18,128 nucleotides of DNA, taken from IMG/VR virus record IMGVR_UViG_2814123389_000006, positions 64,001 to 82,128 of that record; one strand, given 5' to 3'. How positions within the stretch are numbered: position 1 is the stretch's first letter; each line of letters begins with the position of its first letter. The notes under the pieces were generated by a model. The model saw only the letters and a program-made list of their open reading frames with translations. It did no database searches and was not told where the DNA came from. Shown here piece after piece: positions 1 to 18,128 of this stretch. Both the position numbers and the translations under genes were made by a program. The stretch comes from a virus (lineage: Duplodnaviria; Heunggongvirae; Uroviricota; Caudoviricetes).

Positions 1-1
1 G

Positions 2-646
2 GCCAAAGCGGAGAAACGGGAGAAGGCCGAGAAAAAGCTAGCCAAGGCCGAACGGGAGCACCAGGACGCTATCGACGACCTGGCGGCCAAGCAGGAGGAA
101 ATCAACGCATCCGGCGCTTATGACACAAAGGGGTCGGGACCCGACGGCAAGAACTTCGGGCAGCAGATGTTGACCGGCGCACTCGAGGCGCTCGGTTTCG
201 ACGGCGAGATCTTCTCCGACCCGACCCAGTGGGGAATCTTCAAGACCGGTACCGGGATCGCGAACTATCTCGGCGGCATCGCGAAGAACTGGAACTGGAG
301 CGCGCTCCCCGGACAGAACCCGAACCGCCGGCAGCACGGTCTCGGCGGCAGCCCGGGCCCGGGGAACTACGGCGACGGCGGCCTCAGCATGAACTTCGCC
401 GATCCAGGTTCCCCGATCGGCGACACCATCTCGTCGCTGCTCCCGCAGGTCGGCGATTTCCTGCCGAACAGCCAGACCGGCGGGATGCCCGGGAACGGCA
501 GCAACTACACGACCCACGAGTCGGGATCGCACAACACGTCCACCACGGGAGCGGTGTTCAACGGGCCGATCACGGTCAACCAGCAGCCCGGCCAGCCTCA
601 GCGCGGCAACACCTACTCCCTGACGGTTCCTGGGGCCGGTAGGTGA
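2..646 (+). CDS. Tape measure protein, C-terminal part (5' truncated by the window)
   Basis: Frame is open from base 2 (AKAEKREKAEKKLAKAEREHQDAIDDLAAKQEEIN...) through the 167..646 ORF. Helical charged stretch, then a Gly/Asn-rich end with GAVFNGPITVN. Sits directly before the minor tail genes. Confidence 0.75.
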   Translation, partial: AKAEKREKAEKKLAKAEREHQDAIDDLAAKQEEINASGAYDTKGSGPDGKNFGQQMLTGALEALGFDGEIFSDPTQWGIFKTGTGIANYLGGIAKNWNWSALPGQNPNRRQHGLGGSPGPGNYGDGGLSMNFADPGSPIGDTISSLLPQVGDFLPNSQTGGMPGNGSNYTTHESGSHNTSTTGAVFNGPITVNQQPGQPQRGNTYSLTVPGAGR

Positions 647-680
647 TCGCCGTGCTGGTGAGTGAGCGGAGGTCACCAGC

Positions 681-1763
681 GTGAGGTTCATCCGCGAGGC
701 GGAGAAGGCTGCCTACGACCAGTGGGACAAGCTGTCGAAGGCGTTGCAGGGCATGGAGACACGCGTCCTGTACCTCACCCCCGACGGCGGGCGTTATGAC
801 CTGTACGGCGGGCCCAATGAGGGACGCCAGGGGGTGTGGCTCGCAGAGGAGTTCGGCGGCGAGCACCACTGGCCGTTCGAGCTACTCAAGTCTGAGGGCG
901 CCTACGAGATGGGCACCACCATCGAACGCGTCAACATCCTTGAGCGCACCATCAGCCTCAACGTGATCGTCGGCGGTCACAAGCGCGGCCCGATGAACAA
1001 GTTCCAGTATCGGATGGCCGAAAGCCGTTGGTGGGATGGCCAGGACGAGAACCGCGACGGCTGGCTCGGCATCTACACCCGCTATTCCGGGTGGCGCTGG
1101 GTACGCGTCCGGCCGGCGAAAACGGTGGAGGGCGACCAGAAGCGCGACCCGGTCGCGATGGACAACAACACCGCCACCTGGCCTGTCCAGTGGATCGCCC
1201 AGAAGCCCTACTACGCAAAGCCTTCGGTGTTCGAGACCTGGAAGAACAACTCGGAGATCCACGGCGCTCTCGGCGACATTCTGGGGTTCGTCGAGACCGT
1301 CGGCATCCAGCTCGGCGTGTCGGCGAAGAAGCTCTACACCGTTGGCGAGGGCGTCATCACGCTGCCCAACCGCGGCGACCTCGAGAGCTTTCCCCAGTTC
1401 ATCGTCTCGGCCCCCGGCAAGGCGTGGGTGGAGGACGGCAACAGCGGGCGCATGGTTGAGCTGCCGTACCTCACGGCGGCCGACGGCTACACCCTCGTCG
1501 ATACCGATCCGACGCAGCGAACCCTCACGGCGTCAAACGATCCCGTCGACAACATCTTCTACAAGATCGCCAGGCAGTCGAAGATCCTCGACTTCCTGCT
1601 GTGGGAACTGGACGAGACCGGACTGCCGGTCTGGAAGCGATTCGACAAGCGGTTCATGGCCTCGGTGCCGCCGCGCACGATGGCGCAGATTCGGGTCCGG
1701 CACTCCAACCCAAACGGCTCCATCACGGCCATCATGCCGCAGCGATACAAGAGGAGCCGCTAG
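681..1763 (+). CDS. Minor tail protein, distal-tail (Dit)-like position, 360 aa
   Basis: GTG start with GGAGG about 8 nt upstream. First gene after tape measure. GRQGVWL, W/Y-rich motifs and the YxxxR terminus resemble mycobacteriophage minor tail proteins. Confidence 0.8.
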   Translation: MRFIREAEKAAYDQWDKLSKALQGMETRVLYLTPDGGRYDLYGGPNEGRQGVWLAEEFGGEHHWPFELLKSEGAYEMGTTIERVNILERTISLNVIVGGHKRGPMNKFQYRMAESRWWDGQDENRDGWLGIYTRYSGWRWVRVRPAKTVEGDQKRDPVAMDNNTATWPVQWIAQKPYYAKPSVFETWKNNSEIHGALGDILGFVETVGIQLGVSAKKLYTVGEGVITLPNRGDLESFPQFIVSAPGKAWVEDGNSGRMVELPYLTAADGYTLVDTDPTQRTLTASNDPVDNIFYKIARQSKILDFLLWELDETGLPVWKRFDKRFMASVPPRTMAQIRVRHSNPNGSITAIMPQRYKRSR

Positions 1764-1766
1764 CCG

Positions 1767-3602
1767 GTGAGCGACGTACTGGACTGGGTCGAGGACAGCA
1801 CAACCGGCCTAGTCCGGCCGCCGCTTGAGTTCACCCAGTGGCTCAACGGCGCGTTCCGTGACCGGCTGATCGGTGAAAAGGGAAAGCCCGACCCCGTAAC
1901 GGATCCCATGTCGGCGTACAGGTATCTGCGGGGCCGGCGGGACGTCATCGAGGCCGCTGCCAACCAGCGGCCGATGCTGCGCCTGTTCGACAAGAACATG
2001 GAGCCGGTCGCTCAGATCGCTGGCGAGCGGCTGGCTTCGGTGGAGGAGATGGCCACCGACTCCGGCCAGGCCAATGTGGTTCTGCGCTACGAGAACTGGC
2101 TGACCGACTTCATCCTCCATCAGACGAAGGTCCATGAGGACCTGCACCTGGTGGTCGACCCGAACCCGTCGGCGCCGACGTGGCGTACCCGCTGGGGCGG
2201 CAAGGTCACGGGCATCATCGCTAAGCGCGATTCGAGTGGAATTCACACCCTCGAATTAGAAGCGATTTCGAATAGGCAGCACGCGAAGAATTTGCTTTTC
2301 GCTGCAAATCCGATCTTCCCGCCGGAAATTCAGCTACCCAAAATGTGGGTGCTGCCGGGCAATACGCGAACCATCCTCGCGATGTCGATGTTTATTAACC
2401 TCGCCCGCCTATTTTTCCCAGCTCTGTCCATTCCGACCAACATTATGAATCCGGCCGGATGGATAAATGGCGGATTGACTGGGTTCGACCCATTGTCGTG
2501 GCCCCTGCAAGTCCAGTTTGTGAACCCCATTCTGGACCAGTCGCGGCTGTCGGTGATCGGTGCCGCCTGGACCGACTGGCACTCGGCGATGGACGACATG
2601 CTCAAGGACGCCGGCTGCACGTTCCGCGCTTACACATGGCTGACCGAGGACGAGGAGTCTCCGCACACGGAACTGGTGGACCTCGTGCGCGGGACGGTCG
2701 CCGAGGACGTCGTCAACGATGTGACACGGCCGCACCGGAATTGCGTTGTCTTCGCAGTCGAGGACAAGTCCGGCGTGACGGGCCCGACGGGCACTGCCGC
2801 CGACGGGGTGGTCAACCTCATCGGCGCCACGTTGGACGACATGATCACCGAGACGCTGTTCCCGCTCGATAGGGACGGCGACGGCGAGACAGACCCAATC
2901 TTCCGGGAGCTCTTGGGGGTTGCGCCCGAGAAGCCCAAGACCATCTGGTACGACGGCCAGTTCACCGGGATCATCGAGTCCGAGATTCGCCATCACAAGG
3001 GCGCGGTCAAAACGGTCATGACTGGGTCGCGCAGCCCGGCGATTGTCAACCAGGCCCAGACATTCGCGATCCGCTATGCGCTGTCTCAATTGGCTCAGAC
3101 CATTGCGTTTTACGGGCAGATCGAAGGCACCGAAGGCCTCGACAACCTGTACCAGGGCCAGCTCGACAACACCCTGCTGGCCTGGATGCGGTTCACAGAT
3201 CCGGTGCGTGCCTTGTGGTCTGGCGACTTCGCGTGGCAGGAGCACTTTGAGCGTGGGTCAGGAACGGCTTACACGCTCTCTGGCGTAGTGACTTTGAGGC
3301 TCGGCAACTACAAGACCCGCACCTGGCAGGGCTTCACCGTCAAGGTGATCAACGGCCGACCGCACGCTATCGACATCGACGTGGGCCTCGGGGACCGCGC
3401 CGGGTTCGAGCAGGGCGGGATTATCTTCGTCGACCAGATCACGGCCATCAAGCGGACCTGGTCCCGCACAGAGCCTGTGACAGTTCACCTTTCAATCGGT
3501 GACGACAACGACAAGGGAGACCCGTTCGCCCGCGGTCTTCGAGCGCTGCAGGCCGTCTGGACGACCCTGTCCCACTTTCTCGGCGAAGGGACGATCTTCT
3601 GA
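1767..3602 (+). CDS. Minor tail protein (baseplate hub/Tal position), 611 aa
   Basis: GAGGAG RBS at 1751-1756. Motifs RPMLRLFDKNM, RWGGKV, NPIFPPEIQLPK and LGDRAGF are typical of the large conserved mycobacteriophage minor tail protein. TGATG overlap with the next gene. Confidence 0.85.
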   Translation: MSDVLDWVEDSTTGLVRPPLEFTQWLNGAFRDRLIGEKGKPDPVTDPMSAYRYLRGRRDVIEAAANQRPMLRLFDKNMEPVAQIAGERLASVEEMATDSGQANVVLRYENWLTDFILHQTKVHEDLHLVVDPNPSAPTWRTRWGGKVTGIIAKRDSSGIHTLELEAISNRQHAKNLLFAANPIFPPEIQLPKMWVLPGNTRTILAMSMFINLARLFFPALSIPTNIMNPAGWINGGLTGFDPLSWPLQVQFVNPILDQSRLSVIGAAWTDWHSAMDDMLKDAGCTFRAYTWLTEDEESPHTELVDLVRGTVAEDVVNDVTRPHRNCVVFAVEDKSGVTGPTGTAADGVVNLIGATLDDMITETLFPLDRDGDGETDPIFRELLGVAPEKPKTIWYDGQFTGIIESEIRHHKGAVKTVMTGSRSPAIVNQAQTFAIRYALSQLAQTIAFYGQIEGTEGLDNLYQGQLDNTLLAWMRFTDPVRALWSGDFAWQEHFERGSGTAYTLSGVVTLRLGNYKTRTWQGFTVKVINGRPHAIDIDVGLGDRAGFEQGGIIFVDQITAIKRTWSRTEPVTVHLSIGDDNDKGDPFARGLRALQAVWTTLSHFLGEGTIF

Positions 3603-4171
3603 TGTCCGCAGTTGGGCTGTGCGACCGCGATATTGCGGTGTGTGACGCGATCGACGAGGCGGAGGACGCCGACCTGCGGGACATGCTGCGCGAGCAGTTG
3701 AAGTCCGACTACGCGGTGGCATCCAACGCTGGCCTCGACGATGAGAAGGCACTGAAGGTGGCGCAGATGCGCGACATTCAGCGCGCCTACCTCGAGATGC
3801 TCGAGGTGATGGAGTACCCGGTTGACCAGAACGGCCGGGTGCACGACCTGAACGCGATGAGCGCGGCGACGCTCGGAATCGCTTGGACCGCTGTGCTGTA
3901 CGGGTTCCGCCGTTCAGCCGAACCGCTCATCAAGAAGCGACGCATTGTTGCAGCCGGTGTGTACGACAACGCCTGCACCTGGGTCGACGTCAGGGCGCCC
4001 GATCTTGCTGAACGTGACTTGCGGCCCGGCGACTACAGCAGCGATCGGCTACTGCCGCCCGATGTGCGCGGCATGGCCGCCGCCCGCGAAGGAGAAGGCC
4101 CAACCGTAACGGCCGAGTGGCACACCAAACCAAAGGTGCGCTACGTCGATGAACCACGACCGGAGGACTGA
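3602..4171 (+). CDS. Tail-region protein, probably DUF2744-like, 189 aa
   Basis: Coupled by TGATG at both ends. YPVDQNGRV...GFRR..EPLIKKR..GVY..A..WV pattern and position match the small gene that follows the large minor tail protein in mycobacteriophages (family from memory). Confidence 0.65.
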   Translation: MSAVGLCDRDIAVCDAIDEAEDADLRDMLREQLKSDYAVASNAGLDDEKALKVAQMRDIQRAYLEMLEVMEYPVDQNGRVHDLNAMSAATLGIAWTAVLYGFRRSAEPLIKKRRIVAAGVYDNACTWVDVRAPDLAERDLRPGDYSSDRLLPPDVRGMAAAREGEGPTVTAEWHTKPKVRYVDEPRPED

Positions 4172-5529
4172 TGAGCGCACCGATCGGCGAGATGGTCTAC
4201 CTGAAGTCGATACTGACCAACGTCCACATCTACGGGTCGGTCACCGACGGGGCGACGCCGGACCAGTTCTGCGCAACGCTGGAGATCGCGGGCGAAAACG
4301 CCACCATGAGCCTCGCCGCGCTCGTCGGGCCGCAGGGCCCGCAGGGGCAGCACGCGTTCGCGCTGCGCCTGCAGAAGTCGACGATCGACGATCCAGAGGA
4401 CCTGCCGCAGAACCTCACTGACGATCCAGAGGACCTCGGCAAGTACTGGATCATGAACCACTACGAGACCATCAACGAGGTTCAGGTGGTCACGCTCGAC
4501 GGCAGCGGCACGCCGTTCACGCTGACGTATAGCGGTCAGACCACCTCCGCGATCTCGACGACGGCCACAGCCTCCCAGGTGGCGGATGCGCTCGACGCGC
4601 TGCCCAACCTGGCGCACAGCCAGATCGCGCTCGACGGCCTGGCCGGCGGGCCGTACACGGTGACGTTCCAGGGCACCAAGGCTGGCATCAACCAGCCGGT
4701 GATGACGGCTACCCACGCGACCGTCGAGACCACCCAAGAGGGCGAGATCAACCTGGTCGGCGCCCGGGCCTACATCTGGATGGGCGACCACTACCGCATC
4801 CTCATGATGGGCTCAGAAGGCCCCGTCGGCCCCGTCCCGCGGATCGCCTGGGGTGTGCAACTGCTCGACCCGGACGGGGACGAGGAGACCAACGTCGTGC
4901 AGACCGGCACGGCCTACAACCCGTCGGTGCTTCTCAAGCTGAAGGTGCCCCGCGGCCCGCAGGGCGAGGCCGGGCTGATCCGAGACGCCTCCGACTACGA
5001 CGATTCCGAAGCGCCGCAGACCGGCCAGGTGTTGATGTGGAACGGCACCAAGTTCGCGCCGGCCTGGGTTGGCTCCATCATCCCCAAGCCGTTCATCGTG
5101 CCCGAGGCGGCGTTCAACAACTACGAGGGTCTGTCGACCCGGGCTCCGATCGGTACGTTCCCCGTTCCGGCACTGGACTTCCCGTGGAAGCCGTTTGTGT
5201 GGGGCAAGATCAAGGCCACCGGCCTGGAGCTCGACGAAGATCCGCTGATCATCGGTTGCGAGGTCCGGCTCGGCCACCCCACCACGGGGACCCTGGTGGC
5301 CCGCGGGTTCGGCAACTCGACCGGCTGGACCACCCTCACACCGCACACCTCCACGCCGTCGTCACCGTCGGTGGCCATGACGCCGGACAACGCCACAGGG
5401 TTGGTACCGGCCAACCACACCGGCAACGACGGCACGCTGTACATCAACCTCTACAACGACGGCCTGGCCGGCGTGTACCTGTTCAACAAGGCCAACGCCC
5501 AGCTCGCCGTGCTGGCGGTGCCGGTCTAA
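4171..5529 (+). CDS. Minor tail protein with short collagen-like G-X-Y stretches, 452 aa
   Basis: GGAGG RBS at 4162-4166. Contains GPQGPQGQ, GSEGPVGP and GPQGEAG triplets, plus C-terminal GCEVRLGHPTTG.LVARGFG and LYINLYNDG motifs seen in mycobacteriophage minor tail proteins. Confidence 0.8.
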   Translation: MSAPIGEMVYLKSILTNVHIYGSVTDGATPDQFCATLEIAGENATMSLAALVGPQGPQGQHAFALRLQKSTIDDPEDLPQNLTDDPEDLGKYWIMNHYETINEVQVVTLDGSGTPFTLTYSGQTTSAISTTATASQVADALDALPNLAHSQIALDGLAGGPYTVTFQGTKAGINQPVMTATHATVETTQEGEINLVGARAYIWMGDHYRILMMGSEGPVGPVPRIAWGVQLLDPDGDEETNVVQTGTAYNPSVLLKLKVPRGPQGEAGLIRDASDYDDSEAPQTGQVLMWNGTKFAPAWVGSIIPKPFIVPEAAFNNYEGLSTRAPIGTFPVPALDFPWKPFVWGKIKATGLELDEDPLIIGCEVRLGHPTTGTLVARGFGNSTGWTTLTPHTSTPSSPSVAMTPDNATGLVPANHTGNDGTLYINLYNDGLAGVYLFNKANAQLAVLAVPV

Positions 5530-8310
5530 ATGCCCCGCCAGGTAGATACCAACACCGCGCGGTTCGGCCTCAGTCACGACCCGACTTCGCAGCTCACCCC
5601 TGACGTCGGTCTGCAGAAGCAGGTCAACGCTCTCGCGGAGATTTTCAAGGGCCTCGACGAGAAGGTGCGGGCTGAGATCCTGCGAGTGATTGAGACGCTG
5701 CTCGGGATCGCCGCCAATCCTATTCCTGCACTGCAGGACTGGGTCGAAGGACTGCCGGCTCAGGCCGCGGCAGCCGTCCAAGCGCTGAAAGACCAGCTCA
5801 CCAAGATCGTCAATGCCACCGATACGGACATCGACAACTGGCTGCTCGGCCTGCTGACCGGAGAGTCACCGCTCGACGCGGCAAAGCTGTTTGGCCAGTT
5901 CCGCACTGCGCTGCTGGGGCCGTTGCCGATCGGGCTGTTCACCGACGAACAGCTGACCATGCTGTTCGAGGGCGGATTCGACGACCCGGTCACCATCATC
6001 GCGGGCCCAGGCATCGAGCACGACGCCACCGACGGCGCCCCGGGTACGGCGCCGCTGGGATGCGCCAAGGTGGCGTGCGACGGCACCGGCAAGCAGCGCG
6101 CTACGCCGGTGATGAAAGTCAGCCCGGGGTGGGTGCTCAAGTTGGGCGGCCGGATCAAGTACCAGGGCCTGACAGCCGGTGCGAATGCCATTCGGCTGAA
6201 CCTGATCCCGTATTCGAACGAGTCAACACCGATCGTCGGCGGCACGGTCATGGTGGCAACACCGGGCAACGTGTCGGGCACCTCGGGCGGCACCGGCGGA
6301 TGGGGCACAGGACCGTTCGAGGGGTCCTGGACCGTCCCGGCAACGGGCGTCACGCATGTCGCGGTCGAGTGGGAGGTCACCAACTCTGCGACGGCTGGTG
6401 TCGTCAAGTTCGACGAGCTGTATCTACAGGCGACTCAGAAGATTCCGCAGGCGTTCACCAAGGATCTGCCCGAGGACCTGCAGGCGCTGGTCAATGAGGC
6501 GCTGTCGTTGTGGCAGGGACTGGGTGAGCGGCTGCACGTCGACGAGTGGGACGACTGGCTCGCCGATACCTGGACGAATGCGCAGGCCGAAGCCAACCAG
6601 ATCCGCGACATTCTCGCCGGTCTCGTTGTGACGCCGATCAACTCGGCCGTCCAGGCAATCAAGGACTGGTGGGCTGGCGTGGTCGGCAAGACGCAGCACC
6701 TGACCAGTGGCGGCACGCTGCCGCCGACCGCGGTAGACAGCGCCGCCGGTGGGACCAGCCTCGGCCAGGATCTGCTCGACACGTGGAACAAGATCGTCGG
6801 CGGCTACCGCCGTACCGCGGCCACGGGGCAAACCAGCGCCGACGTCGAGGAAGTGATGATGTCGGTCGGCCAGGAGATCCTGGTTGCCCAGGAGTCGACC
6901 ATCACGCTCGCCAACCAGGCCAACGCGCCGAGAAACGTGCCGTTCTGGGTGTCGCCCAACCGGTTTGAAGAGGTCTCGTTCCCGCGCGCACTTCTGCAGC
7001 CGGTGCCCTCTATCGGCTCCGGTGGGAGCGGCACGACGGGCACCGGCTCGGGCCTCACCGTGCTCGATGCGAACTGGAACGCCGAGGAACGTGACGCGGT
7101 CCGCAATCACACCCACAGCACTCCGAGCCACAGCCACGCGCTGTCCTACGTCAAGCCGACGTTCACGATCCCAGACGGCACGTTGGCGCTGACCGCGATC
7201 ACGATGACCCAGGACCGGCTGATCAACGTGGCCCGGTTCCTCGCCGGCGGCGGCACCCCGCCGAGCACCGCGCTGTATGTCGGTCTCTACGCGATCGACC
7301 CGGTCACCGGCACCCAGACTCTGGTCTACGACTACGGCGATCAGAAAGGCAACATCAACACCGGCGCCGACCTCTACGAGACGGCACTGAATCTGCCCGC
7401 CGACATGCTGGCCGACGCCGGAGCAATGTTTGCCGTCGGGATCTTGCCGGTCGGCGGCTCGTTCGCAGTCGCCGGGGTACGTCGCCAGCCTATCGTCACT
7501 GCCGCGGTGATCTACCCGGTGGCAGCCACCGAGCTGGTCTCTGGGCAGAGCAGCCTGCCGGCCACTGTCGACAACAGCTCAATGAATCACAGTGCGACAC
7601 ACCGTATCTGGGTCAGCCTCGGCCAGGCCGTCGAGTCGATCCCCGAGGACACCAGCCCAGTCACGCTGACGATGACGTTCAACGTGGCCGACACGTCGGC
7701 CTGGTCCTCGCCCTCATTCCAGCAATACGGCAACGCCGACAGCAACTTCACCGTCAAGAGCGGAAGTATCTACGGGGGCGGGCCGACCGTCTTGTTTGGT
7801 GACGTGACGTACTGGCGATCGGGGTTGTGCCTCACTCCGGTGCACACCAACGACCACATGGCCGAGATCACGCTGGGCACCGGCTTTGACAACGATGCCT
7901 ACGGCTACGCCACCGATCGGGCCTACGTGCGCTGCAACTCCTCGGGCACCTCGGGAGTCTGCTTGCACGTAGACGCCACCGGCGGCGCGGTGCGGGTGCG
8001 CATCGCCACTATCACCAACCTCACCTCGATCGGCACCGTGCGCGTGACCGCGACCGGTATCCCGTACGCGGTGGGCGATCGGTTCAGCATCCGCGCGGTC
8101 GGCAACGTCTACACCGCATACCGCAACGACGCACCGATACTGGACGGCAACGGTGACCCCGTGGCATGGACCGACAGCGGCAACATTGTGCCGATCGGAA
8201 AGGCATGGCGGCGCACCGCCTTCGGATCGGGCTCGCGCGCCACCAACGGTTTCAATCACTACGAGCCCGCACACATCGACGCCTTCAAGGCAGCGGACCT
8301 GGCGGGCTGA
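5530..8310 (+). CDS. Large minor tail protein / putative receptor-binding fibre, 926 aa
   Basis: Starts right after the previous TAA. Helical N-terminus (LLTGESPLDAAKLFG), a jelly-roll carbohydrate-binding-like segment (GGFDD...VKFDELYL), HxH motifs, and beta-rich C-terminal domains. Confidence 0.75.
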   Translation: MPRQVDTNTARFGLSHDPTSQLTPDVGLQKQVNALAEIFKGLDEKVRAEILRVIETLLGIAANPIPALQDWVEGLPAQAAAAVQALKDQLTKIVNATDTDIDNWLLGLLTGESPLDAAKLFGQFRTALLGPLPIGLFTDEQLTMLFEGGFDDPVTIIAGPGIEHDATDGAPGTAPLGCAKVACDGTGKQRATPVMKVSPGWVLKLGGRIKYQGLTAGANAIRLNLIPYSNESTPIVGGTVMVATPGNVSGTSGGTGGWGTGPFEGSWTVPATGVTHVAVEWEVTNSATAGVVKFDELYLQATQKIPQAFTKDLPEDLQALVNEALSLWQGLGERLHVDEWDDWLADTWTNAQAEANQIRDILAGLVVTPINSAVQAIKDWWAGVVGKTQHLTSGGTLPPTAVDSAAGGTSLGQDLLDTWNKIVGGYRRTAATGQTSADVEEVMMSVGQEILVAQESTITLANQANAPRNVPFWVSPNRFEEVSFPRALLQPVPSIGSGGSGTTGTGSGLTVLDANWNAEERDAVRNHTHSTPSHSHALSYVKPTFTIPDGTLALTAITMTQDRLINVARFLAGGGTPPSTALYVGLYAIDPVTGTQTLVYDYGDQKGNINTGADLYETALNLPADMLADAGAMFAVGILPVGGSFAVAGVRRQPIVTAAVIYPVAATELVSGQSSLPATVDNSSMNHSATHRIWVSLGQAVESIPEDTSPVTLTMTFNVADTSAWSSPSFQQYGNADSNFTVKSGSIYGGGPTVLFGDVTYWRSGLCLTPVHTNDHMAEITLGTGFDNDAYGYATDRAYVRCNSSGTSGVCLHVDATGGAVRVRIATITNLTSIGTVRVTATGIPYAVGDRFSIRAVGNVYTAYRNDAPILDGNGDPVAWTDSGNIVPIGKAWRRTAFGSGSRATNGFNHYEPAHIDAFKAADLAG

Positions 8311-9972: not shown

Positions 9973-10412
9973 GTCTCTACCTGCACACAAACGTGGTCAC
10001 TGGAATGCTCGGTGGCGGGGCCGCTCAAACCCTCGCCGCAGCAATTGACGCGGGCACCGCGGCGGTCATCGAGATCTACAACGGCCCCGTTCCGGCCAAT
10101 GCCGATGCGGCGGAAAGCAACACGCTGCTGGCATCGCTCGTCTGCTCGCCGACTGCGTTCTCTGGGTACAGCGACACCGGCACCGCGGCGCGGGCGACGT
10201 TTGGCCCCATCACGTCGGACACGTCGGCTGACGCCACGGGCACCGCAACGCATTTCCGCATCAAGACGCAGACCGGTGGCGCTGTGATCGCGCAGGGCGA
10301 GGTCGGCATCGCGGGATCCGGCAAGGAGCTGATCATGCAGACCGTTGCGTTCACTGCTGGGTCTACGGTGTCGATCTCCACTGCGTGGATCGACCTGCCC
10401 AAGGGCCCATAG
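9969..10412 (+). CDS. Putative virion/tail-associated beta-rich protein, 147 aa
   Basis: GTGA-coupled start. IEIYNGPVPANAD...TLLASL...ATGTATHFRI...QG.VG pattern resembles small structural genes at the end of phage tail clusters. Confidence 0.65.
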   Translation: MSLYLHTNVVTGMLGGGAAQTLAAAIDAGTAAVIEIYNGPVPANADAAESNTLLASLVCSPTAFSGYSDTGTAARATFGPITSDTSADATGTATHFRIKTQTGGAVIAQGEVGIAGSGKELIMQTVAFTAGSTVSISTAWIDLPKGP

Positions 10413-10552
10413 TGACTAGGCCGATCCTGGGGGCTGTCGTGCTGGGCTACATTGCCGGACTCGTTCTGGTGGGCGTGCTCGGTGCCGCGGTGATGTACGG
10501 CTGGCCGATCGTCGATTCGATCGTCGACCGGGACACACTTCACCACTTCTAG
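10412..10552 (+). CDS. Small single-pass membrane protein, 46 aa (MTRPILGAVVLGYIAGLVLVGVLGAAVMYGWPIVDSIVDRDTLHHF)
   Basis: Not in the ORF track. GTG shares a base with the previous TAG; about 25-aa hydrophobic segment; TAG at 10550-10552. Confidence 0.6.
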   Translation: MTRPILGAVVLGYIAGLVLVGVLGAAVMYGWPIVDSIVDRDTLHHF

Positions 10553-10623
10553 TCCAGTTGTAAGGGCGGGTTGCCCAGGTATAAGTGCGGCCGACCCGCA
10601 AACCCCTGAAACCAATTTTCTCC

Positions 10624-10653
10624 ACCCCGGCACCACTCGGTGACCGGGGTTTT
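10624..10653 (+). terminator. Terminator-like hairpin just before Lysin A
   Basis: ACCCCGG-CACC-actc-GGTG-a-CCGGGGT followed by TTT (11-bp stem with one bulge). Confidence 0.55.
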
Positions 10654-10675
10654 CGCTGTGCCCGAAAGGACCGAA

Positions 10676-12037
10676 ATGGCACTTCGCTACTGGCCGCTCG
10701 GAGCTGGCCGCATCATCACCAGCCCGTTCGGGCCGCGCGCCGGCAGCGTCCACACCGGTGTCGACTTCGGCCGCGTTGGCGGCTCCGGCGGCATGCCGGT
10801 CTACGCCGTGCAGTCCGGCACCGTCATCTACGCCGGAGCCGCCCAAGGCTACGGCGGCCCAGATCCCGCCGGGTGGCTGGTCATCGACTCGACCGATACC
10901 GAGGGCGGCGGCTGCCTCGAATACGGCCACATCATCCGCGAGGTCGGTCTGGGGCAGCGCGTCACCGCGGGGCAGCGGATCGGCCACATCAACCCGAGCT
11001 CGGCGACGAACGGCGGCGTGGCCCCGCATCTGCACCTGTCCGACATGCCGCTCGCGTACAACCCCGCGGCCAAACAGGACCCCATGCGTCGGCTCGCCGG
11101 CGCACTCGAGCCCGGGACGGCGCCGCCGAAACCCGAAACCCAAACGCCCCCCGCGAGTTCGACAGGAGCACCGGCTATGCCCATCGCAAGACCCGTCACC
11201 AGAAGCATGATTTCGCCGTCGCACTACGCCGGACGAGGCGGTGCGACCCCACGCTGGATCGCCGTCCACACCCAGGAGGGCGGCCGGACCGCGGAAGGGC
11301 TCGCCCAGTTCCTGGGGGTCAAGGCCAACCAGGTCAGCTACAACGTCGTCAACGACGACCGCGAGATCATCCAGGTCGTCAACGACAACGACGCGCCGTG
11401 GGCCGCGTCGGGCGCCAATAACTACGCCCTGCACATCTGCTTGGCTGGCAGCTATGCCGCATGGTCGCGCGGTAAGTGGCTTGAGACCGATGACCGGGAC
11501 GGCAAGAACGAGGACGCCGAACTGACGTTGGCGGCCAAGCAGATTGCGTACTGGTGCTCCGAGCGCAACATTCCGGCCGAGTACATCGGTGGACGCGGTA
11601 TTCCGTGGGGTTACGACGGCATCTGCGGACACATGGACTTCGGGTCCTGGGGCGGCGGCCACCACGACCCGGGCGTGAACTTCCCGTGGGACGAGCTGAT
11701 CCGCCGGGTGAAGGCGTTCCTCGCGGGTGCTGCCCCGGCCCCGCTGCCCCCGGTGGTCCCGGTGGGGCCCGGCGGCGGTGCGCCGGTGAACCCGTCCACC
11801 AGTGGGTACTTCGGCGGGCTGCTGTACATGGGCAGCAAGGGCCCGCAGGTGGCCGAGCTGCAGCGCCGACTCAAGGCGGCCTACGCCTCCTATGCCGGGC
11901 ACCTGCCGGTCGACGGGGACTTCGGCCCGCTCACCGACGCCGCAGTTCGGATCTTCCAGTCCCGCTCCGGCCTGGTGGCCGACGGCATTGTCGGTCCGCA
12001 GACGGCGGCGGCACTGAAGCTGAAGGCGGTTGCCTGA
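10676..12037 (+). CDS. lysA: Lysin A endolysin: M23 peptidase + amidase_2 + peptidoglycan-binding domain, about 453 aa
   Basis: GAAAGGA RBS at 10664-10670 before ATG 10676. M23 motifs HTGVDF and HLHL, Pro/Thr linker, amidase motifs VHTQEG and GHMDF...HHDPG.NFPW, and PGBD motif DGDFGPLTDAAVRIFQ...DGIVGPQT. Confidence 0.92.
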   Translation: MALRYWPLGAGRIITSPFGPRAGSVHTGVDFGRVGGSGGMPVYAVQSGTVIYAGAAQGYGGPDPAGWLVIDSTDTEGGGCLEYGHIIREVGLGQRVTAGQRIGHINPSSATNGGVAPHLHLSDMPLAYNPAAKQDPMRRLAGALEPGTAPPKPETQTPPASSTGAPAMPIARPVTRSMISPSHYAGRGGATPRWIAVHTQEGGRTAEGLAQFLGVKANQVSYNVVNDDREIIQVVNDNDAPWAASGANNYALHICLAGSYAAWSRGKWLETDDRDGKNEDAELTLAAKQIAYWCSERNIPAEYIGGRGIPWGYDGICGHMDFGSWGGGHHDPGVNFPWDELIRRVKAFLAGAAPAPLPPVVPVGPGGGAPVNPSTSGYFGGLLYMGSKGPQVAELQRRLKAAYASYAGHLPVDGDFGPLTDAAVRIFQSRSGLVADGIVGPQTAAALKLKAVA

Positions 12038-12038
12038 A

Positions 12039-13256
12039 ATGGCTTGGGCAGCACCGTCGCAGGTCGGCGATCGCGCGGCAGACATTCCCGCCGGGAAGGC
12101 GAAGCTCCGCAAGTACGAGTACGGCCGGGAGAACCTCACCGGCGACGACAGCGACGTGTACACGAAGGGCTTCGGCATCGCGCTGCGCCGATTCCAGTCG
12201 ATCGTGCACGGCGAGGTCCTCACCGGTAAGCGCCAGACGCCGGACGTGAACACCGACGGTGTCTACGACTGGGCCACCAAGGTGCAGCTCGAGGTGATCG
12301 CCCGGCAGACAGCACCGAAGCCTGAGCCGAAGCTGCGGCATCCCGCGTTCGTGTTCCGTGGCACCGGCGGCATCATCGGCCTCGACTACGTGAGCCGCGT
12401 CTGCCAAGGCGTCGCCGATCTGGTCGAGGAGATCAACCCCGATTGGCCGGCCACCATGGGCGGCATCCCGGTCGGCACCGCTGGCGGTATCGGCGACCCG
12501 TCGATGTGGCGTGGTGTGCAGATCGCGCTGACCGACGCGCAGAAGCGGTTCCTGGCGATCCTGGCCGTCCGGCCCAAGGTCAAGATCATCGTCGGCGGAT
12601 ACTCGGCCGGAGCCGTCGCCGCGGCCCTGTTCCGTCAGTGGATCCTCGAGCGGTTCCCCGAGAACTACTTGTGCAGCTTCAGTTTGGGGGACCCGACGCG
12701 GCCTGCTGGCGGCGGCTACTACCCGGGCGTCGCCACCGACGGACAGGGCATCAGTTCGTGGCGCTACGGCGATGTTCGCGACTGGCGGCATTGCTGGCTG
12801 GCTCAACCGGGCGACATGTACACCGCGGTTCCGTTCGGCAAGACCGGCGAGATCATGCAGGACGCGTTCGACATGGTGACCCAGATCGAGCTGTCGAATC
12901 TCGTCGATACGGCGAAGGCGATCGTGCCGGTCATCCCGGAGATCCTGTCCGACGCCGGCATTGAACTGCCGGAGGTGTTCAAGGCGCTGCAGGGCGGTGC
13001 CCCGGCCCTGATCGGTTTCTGGGGGCCGATGCTGTTCGGCGCTCTCACCGGACTGCTCGGCGGTAACCCGAACACCGTCACCGGCACCGCCGCCGCGGCG
13101 CAGGCCGCGCTCATCGCGCTCAAGTTCGCGACCGACAGTCCGCCGACGCGGCCGCACATCACCTACGAGTTCGGCGAGGTGTGGCCCGGCCAGACGTATC
13201 TCGGGCTGGCAATTCAGCACGTCCGGGAGTACGCGAGCGCCATCGCTCCTGCCTGA
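12039..13256 (+). CDS. lysB: Lysin B, cutinase-like mycolylarabinogalactan esterase, about 405 aa
   Basis: ATG 1 nt after the lysA stop. Nucleophile motif GGYSAGA, LGDPTR and GDMY motifs, and an N-terminal degenerate PG-binding region (FQ...DGVYD). Confidence 0.88.
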   Translation: MAWAAPSQVGDRAADIPAGKAKLRKYEYGRENLTGDDSDVYTKGFGIALRRFQSIVHGEVLTGKRQTPDVNTDGVYDWATKVQLEVIARQTAPKPEPKLRHPAFVFRGTGGIIGLDYVSRVCQGVADLVEEINPDWPATMGGIPVGTAGGIGDPSMWRGVQIALTDAQKRFLAILAVRPKVKIIVGGYSAGAVAAALFRQWILERFPENYLCSFSLGDPTRPAGGGYYPGVATDGQGISSWRYGDVRDWRHCWLAQPGDMYTAVPFGKTGEIMQDAFDMVTQIELSNLVDTAKAIVPVIPEILSDAGIELPEVFKALQGGAPALIGFWGPMLFGALTGLLGGNPNTVTGTAAAAQAALIALKFATDSPPTRPHITYEFGEVWPGQTYLGLAIQHVREYASAIAPA

Positions 13257-13334
13257 CCTCATTCCTGTGCTCGAAACCGGAATACCCGCAGGTCATGTCC
13301 GGCTTGCGGTTTCACCCTGAAAGGAAACCCCGCC

Positions 13335-14327: not shown

Positions 14328-14717
14328 ATGGTGTTGTGCATGGCGAGCAAGTATCCGTGGGGTGGCGTCCCACGCTGCACGCTCCCCGAAGGTCATGCCG
14401 GCGACGAGCATGTGGCGGAGGGACTCGTCGACTACCGGACGGGCAAAGCACCAGTGGTCGCCACCTGGTCGGTGTCCGCAGCGCCCGTAGCCGATGCCGG
14501 CGACGCCGCGCCGAGGATCAAATGGAAGCGGACCCGTCCAGGCCACTACATCGGAGCGATCGACCGCAAGGTTCGCTACGCGATGGCGAAAGTCAACGGC
14601 CGATGGATCGTAAGCACCCAACCAGGCGGTGTCGTGGTCGGCTCGGCGGCCCGAACCGAAGAGGCCAAAAGCGTTGCTGAAATCCACGTCAGCGAACCAA
14701 AAGGGGTGCTGTCATGA
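14328..14717 (+). CDS. Hypothetical protein with N-terminal C-x12-C-x5-H-x4-H motif, 129 aa
   Basis: GAAGGGGG RBS 7 nt upstream and an ATGA overlap with the next gene. Confidence 0.7.
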   Translation: MVLCMASKYPWGGVPRCTLPEGHAGDEHVAEGLVDYRTGKAPVVATWSVSAAPVADAGDAAPRIKWKRTRPGHYIGAIDRKVRYAMAKVNGRWIVSTQPGGVVVGSAARTEEAKSVAEIHVSEPKGVLS

Positions 14718-15094
14718 GTGGCATGGACGGCGCGAAGGCCGGAGCCCGGCGTGCCGCTTACCAGAAGATCCGGCACGACTGCGCCTGCGGTCGGGTGTTG
14801 CGCGGCAACCTCGCCACGTCGCATCTGCGGGCGTGCGAGACCAACCTGCGGGAGAGCGGCTGGCCACTCGACGCGGGGATGAAAGAGGTTCTACTGAAGG
14901 AGTGCGGCGGCCGCCGACAGGCGCCGACCTACGCCCACATCGTGCGTGCGGTCGAGCGTGGCCTGGGGAAGATTTACCTGGAACGCCGGCAGCGGGGAGA
15001 CAAGACTCCGTTGCCCTGGATCGAGTACCGCGACGAGGTCTGGCGGCTCGCCGACGCCGCGGTGGTCAACCCCGCGGCCGGCGCCAGCTCGTGA
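14714..15094 (+). CDS. Basic hypothetical protein with C-x-C-x11-H-x3-C motif, 126 aa
   Basis: AAAGGGG RBS; coupled by ATGA upstream and a possible GTGA downstream. Confidence 0.7.
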   Translation: MSGMDGAKAGARRAAYQKIRHDCACGRVLRGNLATSHLRACETNLRESGWPLDAGMKEVLLKECGGRRQAPTYAHIVRAVERGLGKIYLERRQRGDKTPLPWIEYRDEVWRLADAAVVNPAAGASS

Positions 15095-15147
15095 ACAGGC
15101 ACATGTGCGAGGATGGCTCGCTGCCGGAGCAAGATGGAGAGCTATTC

Positions 15148-15516
15148 GTGACGCCTGCCGAGTTGCGCTGCCTGCGCGAGTTCCTGGGCCTGACAACCGC
15201 GTGGCTGGCCGATCGCCTTGGGATCCGGGAGCGGCGCCTCCAGCGGATGGAGGCCGGCGCAGAGCCCATCCCAGATGGCGTCGCCGCCGAGATCGACGAC
15301 CTCGCCGCGACAACCGCCGAGTACGTCGAGCAGCTGCTCAACGAGTTCGATGACACCGACGAAGCTGCAACGCTGATCACCTACCGGACCGACGCCGCGT
15401 TCAAGGCGTCAGGTGGATTGGGCAAGACGTTCCCCGCCTCATGGCACCGCGCCGTCGCGGCCCGGGTGGCCGAGCAGATCGACACACTAACGCTGGAGTA
15501 CTCGGCCGAGGGTTAG
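15148..15516 (+). CDS. XRE-HTH regulator, Aca2/YdiL (DUF1870)-like, 122 aa (alternative start GTG 15091, 141 aa)
   Basis: MTPAELRCLREFLGLTTAWLADRLGIRERRLQRMEAGAEPIPDGV HTH, followed by LITYRTD and FPASWHRAVAARVA, which I recognise as the actinobacterial DUF1870-type C-terminus. GGAGAG RBS at 15136-15141. Confidence 0.75.
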   Translation: MTPAELRCLREFLGLTTAWLADRLGIRERRLQRMEAGAEPIPDGVAAEIDDLAATTAEYVEQLLNEFDDTDEAATLITYRTDAAFKASGGLGKTFPASWHRAVAARVAEQIDTLTLEYSAEG

Positions 15517-16037: not shown

Positions 16038-16313
16038 TTACCCGCCGCTGGCTGGGTGGGCGTCGGAGGGCCCGGTGGTGTCGCCGCGGTGGTCCTCGGC
16101 GATTCGGGTGGCGAGGTTCTCGATGGCTTCGTCGGTGAGGTAGTGGCGCGCGGCACGCCGACTGATCCCCATCAGTTCGGCCAAGGTGTCAAGATGTTCG
16201 GACACCATGTCAGTGGCGACTTGCTCTGTAACGGTCAGTCCGTGGCAGGCCAGGTTGGCAAGCAGTACGGATGAGCGCTGTGCAAGCCACTGGGATCTGC
16301 GACGAAGAGACAT
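16038..16313 (-). CDS. Hypothetical protein, 91 aa, homologous to the gene at 17895-18128
   Basis: Visible alignment with the 17895-18128 protein (RSQW/RSPW, HGL, H, R..AR, TD, A..IA). GAGGAAGG upstream. Confidence 0.7.
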   Translation of the reverse strand: MSLRRRSQWLAQRSSVLLANLACHGLTVTEQVATDMVSEHLDTLAELMGISRRAARHYLTDEAIENLATRIAEDHRGDTTGPSDAHPASGG

Positions 16314-16372: not shown

Positions 16373-17470
16373 TTAGATATTTGCTACATTGCCGTCTGCG
16401 TTGACTAGTTCCACCGTAACGCCGTGCATGGGCGGCGTCGCATGTTGGCGAGAATCGTCCGAAGAACTGCCTGCCCCGAACACGGAGGTAAGCACCGTGG
16501 CCGTGATAGCCGCCGCGACCGACGCCACCACCCCGCCTCCGCGCCGCGGTGGCGTCGGGGCTGCCGCGGCCAGCATGGCGGCGCGCATCTCCTCGTCGTC
16601 GACCGCGGTGTAGATCTGCGTGGTGGCGATGCTGGAGTGGCCCAGCAGTTCCTGGACAGCCCGAATGTTGCGCGTGCCGCGGTACGCGCGGGTGGCGAAT
16701 CGGTGCCGCAGCGTATGCATCGTCCAGTGCTCCGGCAGCGCCTCGGAGATCAGCGTTCCGACCCAACGCGGCGAAAGGTGCCCGTTGTCATCGCCTGGGA
16801 ACAGCCAGCCCTCGACCCCGTAAGCGGCGAGCTCGGGCGTGTGGCCCGGGGCGCCTGCAGCGATGAGGTCTGCGAGCTCGCAACTGATCGGGACGACGCG
16901 TTCCCGGCAGCCCTTGCCGTGGACGAGAAGCTGCGGCCCGTCGAAACCCTCGATGAGATCTCGGGTGTGGACCTTGGCGACCTCGGATCGCCGGAGGCCG
17001 GCCTCCGCCGCCAGGCGCAGCATGAGCGCAGTTCGAGGCTCTGCGGCGAGGATCGCCTCGGCCCAGACGCGATCGGGGGCTGGTCGCGGCGTGGGACGGT
17101 CCGCCTTGATGAGAGGCAAGCTGGCGGCGGGGTTCGTCTCGAGGTGTCCCTCGGTGTGCGCCCAACTGAAGAAGCTGGACGCGCTGTTGCGATAACCGCG
17201 GCGTGTCTCTCGTGCCCAGTGTTTCTGCGTGGCGAACCAGTTCTTGAGCGTGTCACCCGACACGTCGGCCGGGTCGGTTCGTAGCGCTCGAGCGATTCGC
17301 GATATGTGCGAGACGCGCGTGCTGATGGTGGTTTCTGGGCGGTCGACGGCCTGCTCGGCCGTGATGTAGCAGTCGATCAACGACTGCCAGGCGGGGGGCG
17401 CCGGCCACTTGTCTGGACCGGAACGCCGCTTGAACTGGATCACAATGGCGGAATCTAACGGACGAGTCAT
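16373..17470 (-). CDS. int: Tyrosine integrase (core-binding + catalytic domains, no evident arm-binding domain) with a C-terminal extension, 365 aa
   Basis: Catalytic set R (GLRRSEV), K (HGKG), HxxR (HTLRHR), H (LLGH) and Y (TQIYT). Only about 25 aa precede the core-binding domain, as in BPs/Brujita-type arm-less integrases. Adjacent to the att core. Confidence 0.95.
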   Translation of the reverse strand: MTRPLDSAIVIQFKRRSGPDKWPAPPAWQSLIDCYITAEQAVDRPETTISTRVSHISRIARALRTDPADVSGDTLKNWFATQKHWARETRRGYRNSASSFFSWAHTEGHLETNPAASLPLIKADRPTPRPAPDRVWAEAILAAEPRTALMLRLAAEAGLRRSEVAKVHTRDLIEGFDGPQLLVHGKGCRERVVPISCELADLIAAGAPGHTPELAAYGVEGWLFPGDDNGHLSPRWVGTLISEALPEHWTMHTLRHRFATRAYRGTRNIRAVQELLGHSSIATTQIYTAVDDEEMRAAMLAAAAPTPPRRGGGVVASVAAAITATVLTSVFGAGSSSDDSRQHATPPMHGVTVELVNADGNVANI

Positions 17471-17566: not shown

Positions 17567-17737
17567 CTAAGCGGCTTCACGTTGCGGGTCCGGGGATTCC
17601 GGAGCGTGCGGAAGGGGTGCCAGCGGGGCTGTCGGCAGGGGAATGACCTTGGCCGGCGTAGCGTCGGAATCGACGCAGGTCAAGTGGCGTGAGCCGACTG
17701 ACCAGAAGGTTAGGGGTTCGAATCCCTTCGGGCGCAC
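17567..17737 (-). pseudogene. Orphaned 3' end of the immunity repressor gene (56 codons, ends EAA-stop, ssrA-like degron), separated from its 5' part by integration
   Basis: Translates as VRPKGFEPLTFWSVGSRHLTCVDSDATPAKVIPLPTAPLAPLPHAPESPDPQREAA-stop. Starts exactly in the att core and is closed upstream by TAG at 17759-17761. Confidence 0.75.
17703..17737 (+). other. attR common core = 3' half of tRNA-Arg(ACG), not an intact tRNA
   Basis: CAGAAGGTTAGGGGTTCGAATCCCTTCGGGCGCAC contains a T-arm (AGGGG-TTCGAAT-CCCTT) and the acceptor 3' strand CGGGCGC, matching the actinobacterial tRNA-Arg(ACG) 3' end as I recall it. The 5' half (GCGCCCGTAGCTCA...) is absent. Confidence 0.85.
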
Positions 17738-17742
17738 TCCGG

Positions 17743-17779
17743 AAAAAAGAGGCGCGGTCTACGGACCGCGCCTCTTTTT
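17743..17779. terminator. Bidirectional intrinsic terminator (probably the host tRNA terminator)
   Basis: AAAAAAGAGGCGCGGTC-TACG-GACCGCGCCTCTTTTT: perfect stem, C(UACG)G loop, and T-tracts on both strands. Confidence 0.9.
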
Positions 17780-17894: not shown

Positions 17895-18128
17895 CTAGTC
17901 GGACGCGACGGCAGTGGCGATGTCCACGGCCATCTCGCGCAGGACATCGTCGGTGACGAACTGGCGCGCGCTCTGCCGGTTCAATCGGAGCACCGACACC
18001 AGGAGTTCGATGTGGCCGGCCACCTGAACCCGAGCCAGCTCGGGCGGCAGGTGCAGGCCGTGCAACTCGGCCAGGAACCGGCGCAGCACGGTGACGCGAT
18101 CGTTCATCCACGGCGACCGGCCGGCCAT
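17895..18128 (-). CDS. Hypothetical protein (77 aa or more), presumed host side; homologue of 16038-16313
   Basis: Open frame with GC-rich third positions and alignment to the 91-aa gene. The ATG is the last codon of the window, so the true start may lie further out. Confidence 0.7.
   Translation of the reverse strand: MAGRSPWMNDRVTVLRRFLAELHGLHLPPELARVQVAGHIELLVSVLRLNRQSARQFVTDDVLREMAVDIATAVASD

Follow-up and report, generated by a model that had tools for sequence, protein, structure and literature searches.

Integration-dependent immunity was reportedly described for bacteriophage BPs by Broussard et al. in 2013. In such systems the integration event itself decides which form of the immunity repressor is made, and the mechanism has been treated in a series of publications (PMC4557955, PMC3694055, PMC9262239, PMC9934374, PMC8092301), including the description of a stop codon created by a single base in BPs (PMC9262239) and of prophages in which the active repressor is found at attL and a 3' remnant with an -AA tag at attR (PMC9934374). 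Phages of the BPs/Brujita/Charlie type share a layout in which the repressor gene (rep) lies upstream of and co-oriented with the integrase gene (int) and diverges from a cro-like gene, while the attP core is located inside the repressor ORF. A C-terminal tag on Int is typical of this type, yet not universal, and several accepted integration-dependent systems also lack -AA on Int (PMC8092301). In the prophage analysed here both the gene layout and the position of the core inside the repressor ORF are found, whereas a C-terminal tag on Int is not. The sequence-only reading of this DNA had already pointed to a switch as established in mycobacteriophages, and the mechanism, the single-base stop and the attL/attR naming are indeed all published. 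The prophage adds no new mechanism.

The prophage and its right-hand boundary

The window (the whole stretch of 18,128 nucleotides analysed here) comprises bases 64001-82128, that is, the right 18 kb, of an 82,128-bp IMG/VR provirus record which is rated 100% complete and has a GC content of 66%. Window positions 1-8310 are occupied by tail genes (PHROG minor tail proteins) showing 72-74% nucleotide identity to Cluster Y phages and to prophiGD43A-5 and prophiT37-1, the genomes of which are all 75-78 kb in size, and the prophage is, judging by its sequence, related to Cluster Y. Between the tail genes and the integrase gene, two long overlapping ORFs (725 and 443 aa; 10076-13262, minus strand) have no Pfam or PHROG match, and an ORF on the opposite strand (12030-13256) gives a weak, sub-threshold match to Lipase_3. 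A 295-aa protein encoded at 14629-15516 (plus strand) carries a C-terminal Aca2/YdiL-like HTH domain (PF08965, 26.2 bits against a cutoff of 23.8).

The features of the right end are listed below in window positions, with the strand given where a feature has one.

16373-17470, minus strand: tyrosine integrase of 365 aa (Pfam PF00589, 84.6 bits)
17567-17737, minus strand: putative orphaned 3' remnant of the immunity repressor gene, its frame continuous with the attL repressor
17702: switch base, C on the phage arm giving TGG (Trp) on the minus strand, host T at attL giving TGA
17703-17738: attR copy of the 36-bp att common core, identical to record bases 2-37 (attL copy)
17703-17736, plus strand: fragment comprising the 3' 34 nt of tRNA-Arg(ACG), the same 34 nt that end a known 74-nt tRNA
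17743-17779: bidirectional terminator hairpin of the host just past the tRNA end, flanked by an A-run on its left and a T-run on its right
17895-18128, minus strand: host chromosomal gene of 77 aa, 90-95% identical at the protein level to the gene adjoining unoccupied tRNA-Arg attB

The two copies of the 36-bp core are 100% identical, the core is found nowhere else in the record, and the prophage measures ~81.7 kb between them. The tRNA fragment, which covers the 3' strand of the anticodon stem, the variable loop, the T arm, the 3' strand of the acceptor stem and the discriminator A, ends at 17736, so that the core extends two bases further; ARAGORN detected no tRNA anywhere in the window. The identical 34 nt terminate the 74-nt tRNA-Arg(acg) of M. 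peregrinum, M. porcinum and M. septicum. The tRNA-Arg sequence given in the sequence-only reading (GGATCAGAAGG) proved to be exactly that of the host, the core being the 3' part of tRNA-Arg(ACG). A scan of genome contigs revealed T followed by the same 36 bases in at least 120 actinobacterial genomes, and in 102 of the 120 loci fetched this sequence makes up the 3' part of a 74-nt tRNA-Arg with the anticodon ACG. In mycolicibacteria (L097 2295-2497, L044, L066, L073) tRNA-Ser(gct) and the target tRNA-Arg(acg) form a gene pair in this order, with ~37 bp between them. Seven loci of Knoellia, Pedococcus, Kineosporia and Janibacter (L011, L019, L031, L043, L057, L074, L077) contain 3' fragments of tRNA-Arg(ACG) in which the identity to the tRNA reaches further 5' (through CTACGGA) and is preceded by non-tRNA DNA. 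Their sequence suggests junctions of other integrative elements targeting this tRNA through a longer core, which would include the TGA.

To the right of the core, the region containing the terminator hairpin and the 77-aa gene shares 91% nucleotide identity with M. peregrinum. The 77-aa gene stands directly beside the empty tRNA-Arg attB in M. peregrinum (L097), M. porcinum (L044, L089), M. septicum (L066) and [M.] fortunisiensis (L026), and hairpins comparable to that at 17743-17779 follow the tRNA-Arg gene in M. porcinum, M. septicum and [M.] fortunisiensis. The hairpin was missed by a consensus terminator scan and clearly revealed by folding (-32.8 kcal/mol, z = -5.5). As both the hairpin and the 77-aa gene adjoin unoccupied tRNA-Arg in four species, the DNA to the right of 17738 is bacterial and that to the left of 17703 belongs to the phage. 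The flank matches the Mycolicibacterium peregrinum/septicum/porcinum group, which places the host among the M. fortuitum-group mycolicibacteria; an exact search of genome contigs for the tRNA end joined to the host terminator gave 0 matches. On the phage side, a 91-aa ORF beside int (16038-16313, minus strand) is 34% identical over 68 residues to the host-side 77-aa gene (pairwise E = 1e-12). This similarity is real, but the view that the DNA to the right of the core is left over from an older element was rejected for its present state: the conservation of the 77-aa gene next to unoccupied attB in four species makes it chromosomal today.

The explanation that the record consists of tandem prophages, 82 kb being too big for one phage, was considered and rejected, because just two copies of the core are present in the record. 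In addition, the related phages of 75-78 kb make a single prophage of 81.7 kb plausible, and the combination of attL with attR, a reconstruction used as a test in PMC9934374, restores a full repressor.

The repressor at attL and the open frame at attR

The record opens with a T, which is followed by the core. On the minus strand of this end an ORF starts with the ATG at record position 306, proceeds to ...GDDGEEVRPKGFEPLTF and is terminated by TGA at positions 3-1, its product being a protein of 101 aa that ends in ...GFEPLTF. The protein harbours a Cro/C1-type HTH domain (Pfam HTH_26, 31.4 bits, cutoff 22), and hence the repressor ending in ...GFEPLTF-stop that the sequence-only reading had anticipated at the other end of the prophage is found there. 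A second HTH_26 gene (record 403-684, plus strand), also scoring above the Pfam cutoff, is divergent from the attL repressor gene and is followed by an antirepressor-like ORF. The third base of the TGA is complementary to the T at record base 1, outside the core, and T is the base that the intact tRNA has at this position; the host codon is thus TGA instead of TGG, as had been predicted. Because the switch base lies just outside the common core, the outcome is independent of the position of strand exchange. The first base of the provirus record coincides with the end of the repressor's stop codon and precedes the core by one base. This placing of the boundary is probably the reason why the 5' half of tRNA-Arg was trimmed away, the 5' 38 nt at attL lying outside the record, and attL would be expected to carry an intact tRNA-Arg gene.

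At the opposite junction, the minus-strand translation of window positions 17800-17564 reads ...P-stop-TAPLFSG-VRPKGFEPLTF-W-SVGS...PDPQREAA-stop. The remnant ORF (17737 to 17567) has a GTG start and 56 codons, of which 11 (VRPKGFEPLTF) are contributed by the core and represent the antisense of the T arm and acceptor stem of the tRNA. The remaining 45 codons (17704-17570) form a tail which begins with Trp (TGG at 17704-17702), continues as a Pro/Ala-rich stretch and ends in ...QREAA before the stop codon TAG (17569-17567). A stop 8 codons ahead of the core Val closes the frame, and the remnant is probably silent in the lysogen. Translation therefore bears out what the sequence-only reading had seen on this strand, namely the core peptide, the TGG codon, the Pro-rich linker, QREAA-stop and the closure of the frame beyond the core. 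Its statement that no ORF caller reports the element agrees with the absence of the 56-aa product from ~15 billion predicted proteins, among which the 101-aa repressor is present, but an equivalent remnant is annotated as a misc_feature in the curated GenBank record of prophiGD43A-5. The proximal part of the tail resembles that annotated remnant (E = 8e-5) for ~15 residues past the core; beyond these residues the sequence of the tail is conserved with no relative compared.

When attP was rebuilt in silico by joining the window up to and including 17702, the core and the record from base 38 onward, a single uninterrupted ORF of 146 aa was obtained, which reaches 17570 and in which the core supplies codons 91-101. 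The continuous HTH repressor ORF through the core, as envisaged in the earlier reading, is thus recovered, and this form consists of the HTH domain, 11 core-encoded residues and the 45-residue tail ending in -AA. The phage form would accordingly be 146 aa long, as opposed to the 101 aa of the prophage form. Five homologues end exactly at ...GFEPLTF: P0001 (the attL repressor itself), P0006, P0007 (M. conceptionense), P0010 (M. abscessus) and P0012. P0008, a P0007-type protein encoded on a short ENA contig, has an odd N-terminal insertion and continues past ...GFEPLTF with Cys and a 34-aa tail, a sequence that is suggestive of a natural extended form. A related-locus search of viral contigs with the repressor returned only 32HC and no natural attP-form relative.

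The annotated immunity repressors BPs gp33, Bipper gp51 and UmaThurman gp36 and the split repressor of prophiGD43A-5 contain this core peptide too, in an identical frame and with a TGN codon after it, the codon being TGT in BPs and Bipper and TGG in UmaThurman and prophiGD43A-5. In each of these relatives the host T after the core converts TGN to TGA. As a control, the antisense frame was followed in the 102 genomes with an intact tRNA-Arg, where it usually closes after the 11 codons. An antisense ORF of at least 80 aa is found at 13 of these 102 loci, and only two loci (L073 and L118) align with known repressors past the core; L073 (M. kyogaense) shows 39% identity over 100 aa to Bipper gp51.

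The integrase gene is located downstream of the repressor remnant in the same orientation, separated from it by a gap of 96 bp. Residues 4-294 of the integrase share 62-70% identity with the integrases of Cluster Y and prophiGD43A-5 and ~58% with gene 32 of Cluster G, and the protein is orthologous to the integrases of Clusters Y and G, which use the same tRNA-Arg core. As the protein ends in ...GNVANI and not in -AA, it shows no sign of the second proteolytic input that belongs to the canonical switch. Residues 295-365 (window 16373-16588) constitute a C-terminal extension of 71 residues with no counterpart in the integrases of Cluster Y, Cluster G or prophiGD43A-5, all alignments stopping at residue 294.

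Probable integration-dependent immunity and alternative readings

The evidence presented above is best accounted for if the remnant is the 3' end of the prophage's own repressor gene, divided in an integration-dependent immunity switch as in BPs-type systems, and we assign this reading a probability of about 0.8. [quoted passage not shown] The first bacterial base after the core turns the phage TGG into TGA, so that the product at attL has 101 aa. The long form is predicted to be unstable owing to the recognition of its C-terminus by Clp-type proteases of the host, whereas the short form would be stable and would repress the divergent early promoter. Immunity would consequently depend on integration, and excision would rebuild the unstable form.

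The candidate degradation tag in this scheme is the -AA at the end of the tail. The tmRNA tag of M. peregrinum is ADSNQRDYALAA, the tag of the host group ends in ...YALAA, and the likeness of the tail to the ssrA tag is confined to the last two residues, -AA. The end of the tail, -QREAA, agrees with the operational tag definition 'XXXAA' (PMC8092301), which is a criterion of sequence only. It may be argued that the repressor is truncated by integration and that the tail is nevertheless not a proteolysis tag, but alters the long form in some other way (oligomerisation, promoter activation) or contains a signal other than ssrA, a possibility put forward for BPs and for some prophages of M. abscessus. 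The C-termini of BPs gp33 (-KAS), UmaThurman gp36 (-PA) and P0008 (-VA) are consistent with such a role, as are the poor conservation of the tail sequence, the existence of several systems without -AA that presumably use other signals (PMC8092301) and the possible activating role of the C-terminal extension raised in PMC4557955. However, the tail examined here does end in -AA, its nearest relatives (prophiGD43A-5, Bipper and 32HC) end in -DAA, and -AA is both the criterion adopted in the literature and rare by chance, Ala-Ala preceding 1.6% of stops (40/2565, all six frames). A tail acting otherwise than as an ssrA-like tag is therefore regarded as rather improbable.

It seems far less probable still that the prophage is a fossil which no longer excises and in which the remnant is a relic without a current role. 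The unusual C-terminal extension of the integrase, which lacks homology to its relatives, would fit such a state, and a search of 301 sampled genomes from the M. peregrinum genus group did not turn up the repressor, so that there is no population sign of mobility. On the other hand, the core copies are identical over all 36 bp, the rebuilt ORF contains neither a frameshift nor a stop, the integrase ORF is intact with a full match to the catalytic domain, the record is rated 100% complete, and its size fits the 75-78 kb relatives. Least credible of all is a mere accident of high-GC DNA behind the core, unrelated to the repressor, since, even though an open run of at least 45 codons from a random codon has a probability of 0.52 in this record and the codon-position GC of the tail is flat and not gene-like (with no coding-type GC3 signal), the frame at attR pairs through the core with the truncated repressor at the other junction, four phage groups share both the frame and the TGN-to-TGA conversion, and the tail ends in -AA and resembles the prophiGD43A-5 remnant in its proximal part.

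The divided repressor gene also provides a clean worked example for annotation. The prophage caller cut the record at the stop codon of the repressor and lost half of the tRNA, and the 56-codon remnant was never called as a gene. Pairing of attL with attR recovers the true phage form of the repressor and shows that the 81.7 kb between the cores are a single prophage. As PMC8092301 points out, the cloning of such a repressor as an immunity marker calls for the prophage form, here of 101 aa, instead of the 146-aa form.

Comparison with known systems

BPs (Cluster G) resembles this prophage in having a cro-like gene divergent from rep, followed by int, and in the location of attP inside rep. Both use tRNA-Arg as the target with a core of 35-36 bp read in the same antisense frame (...GFEP-TF), in both the first bacterial base converts TGN to TGA, and the repressors are alike in size, being shortened from 136 to 103 aa in BPs and from 146 to 101 aa here. 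However, the N-terminal DNA-binding domain of gp33 is unrelated to that of this repressor, the tail of 45 aa ending in -AA contrasts with one of 33 aa ending in -KAS, rep and int are 96 bp apart instead of overlapping, and the phage is ~82 kb long compared to the 42 kb of BPs.

The closest relatives at the level of the whole phage are those of Cluster Y (Bipper gp51/gp50, Cracklewink, Typha, Hilltopfarm) and the M. abscessus prophages prophiGD43A-5 and prophiT37-1. In this group the tRNA-Arg core is placed identically in the repressor and the tails end in -DAA, and in the prophiGD43A-5 record both halves of the split repressor are given as misc_features, the accompanying note placing attP inside the immunity repressor. 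The repressor HTH domain of these phages is, however, BPs-like, whereas that of the present repressor is 32HC-like. Gordonia phage UmaThurman, for which integration-dependent immunity has been predicted (PMC4929511), likewise shares the core peptide, with Trp (TGG) after it, in gp36 and the same rep-int order, but differs in its unrelated HTH domain, its shorter tail ending in -PA and its Gordonia host.

The N-terminal 76 residues of the repressor are 72-75% identical to those of the Cluster Z phages 32HC (gp48, L005 2501-2878), Rem711 and NM241, and the rep-cro intergenic region of Cluster Z is partly alignable (76% mean column identity). The 32HC repressor ends in -DAA and its gene is directly upstream of int. 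Nevertheless, the homology ends ~10 residues before the core, and these phages have a different tRNA-antisense core, which gives 32HC a different attB. The repressor (record 4-306) is a mosaic: its HTH domain is Cluster Z-like, but the att core and proximal tail, as well as the integrase, resemble those of Cluster Y/G. At least two different tRNA cores occur with this HTH family (P0001 versus 32HC or P0011 of M. aquaticum), and at least three unrelated HTH domains occur with this tRNA-Arg core (those of BPs/Bipper, of UmaThurman and of the present repressor). These combinations allow the tentative suggestion, which we consider possible and no stronger than that, that the repressor gene is a chimera jointed at the att core, that the core is a natural module boundary and that, together with the odd end of the integrase, the system is a variant with a different control of the integrase. 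If this is true, a core inside the ORF would let immunity specificity and integration specificity reassort within one frame, and the unique 71-residue extension of Int in place of -AA could mark a different control of the integrase arm.

Whatever the origin of its parts, none of the peculiarities of this prophage, namely the Z-type HTH domain, the longer Pro-rich tail, the non-overlapping rep and int genes and an Int without -AA, breaks its membership in the switch class, the last of them being found in systems accepted as integration-dependent in PMC8092301.
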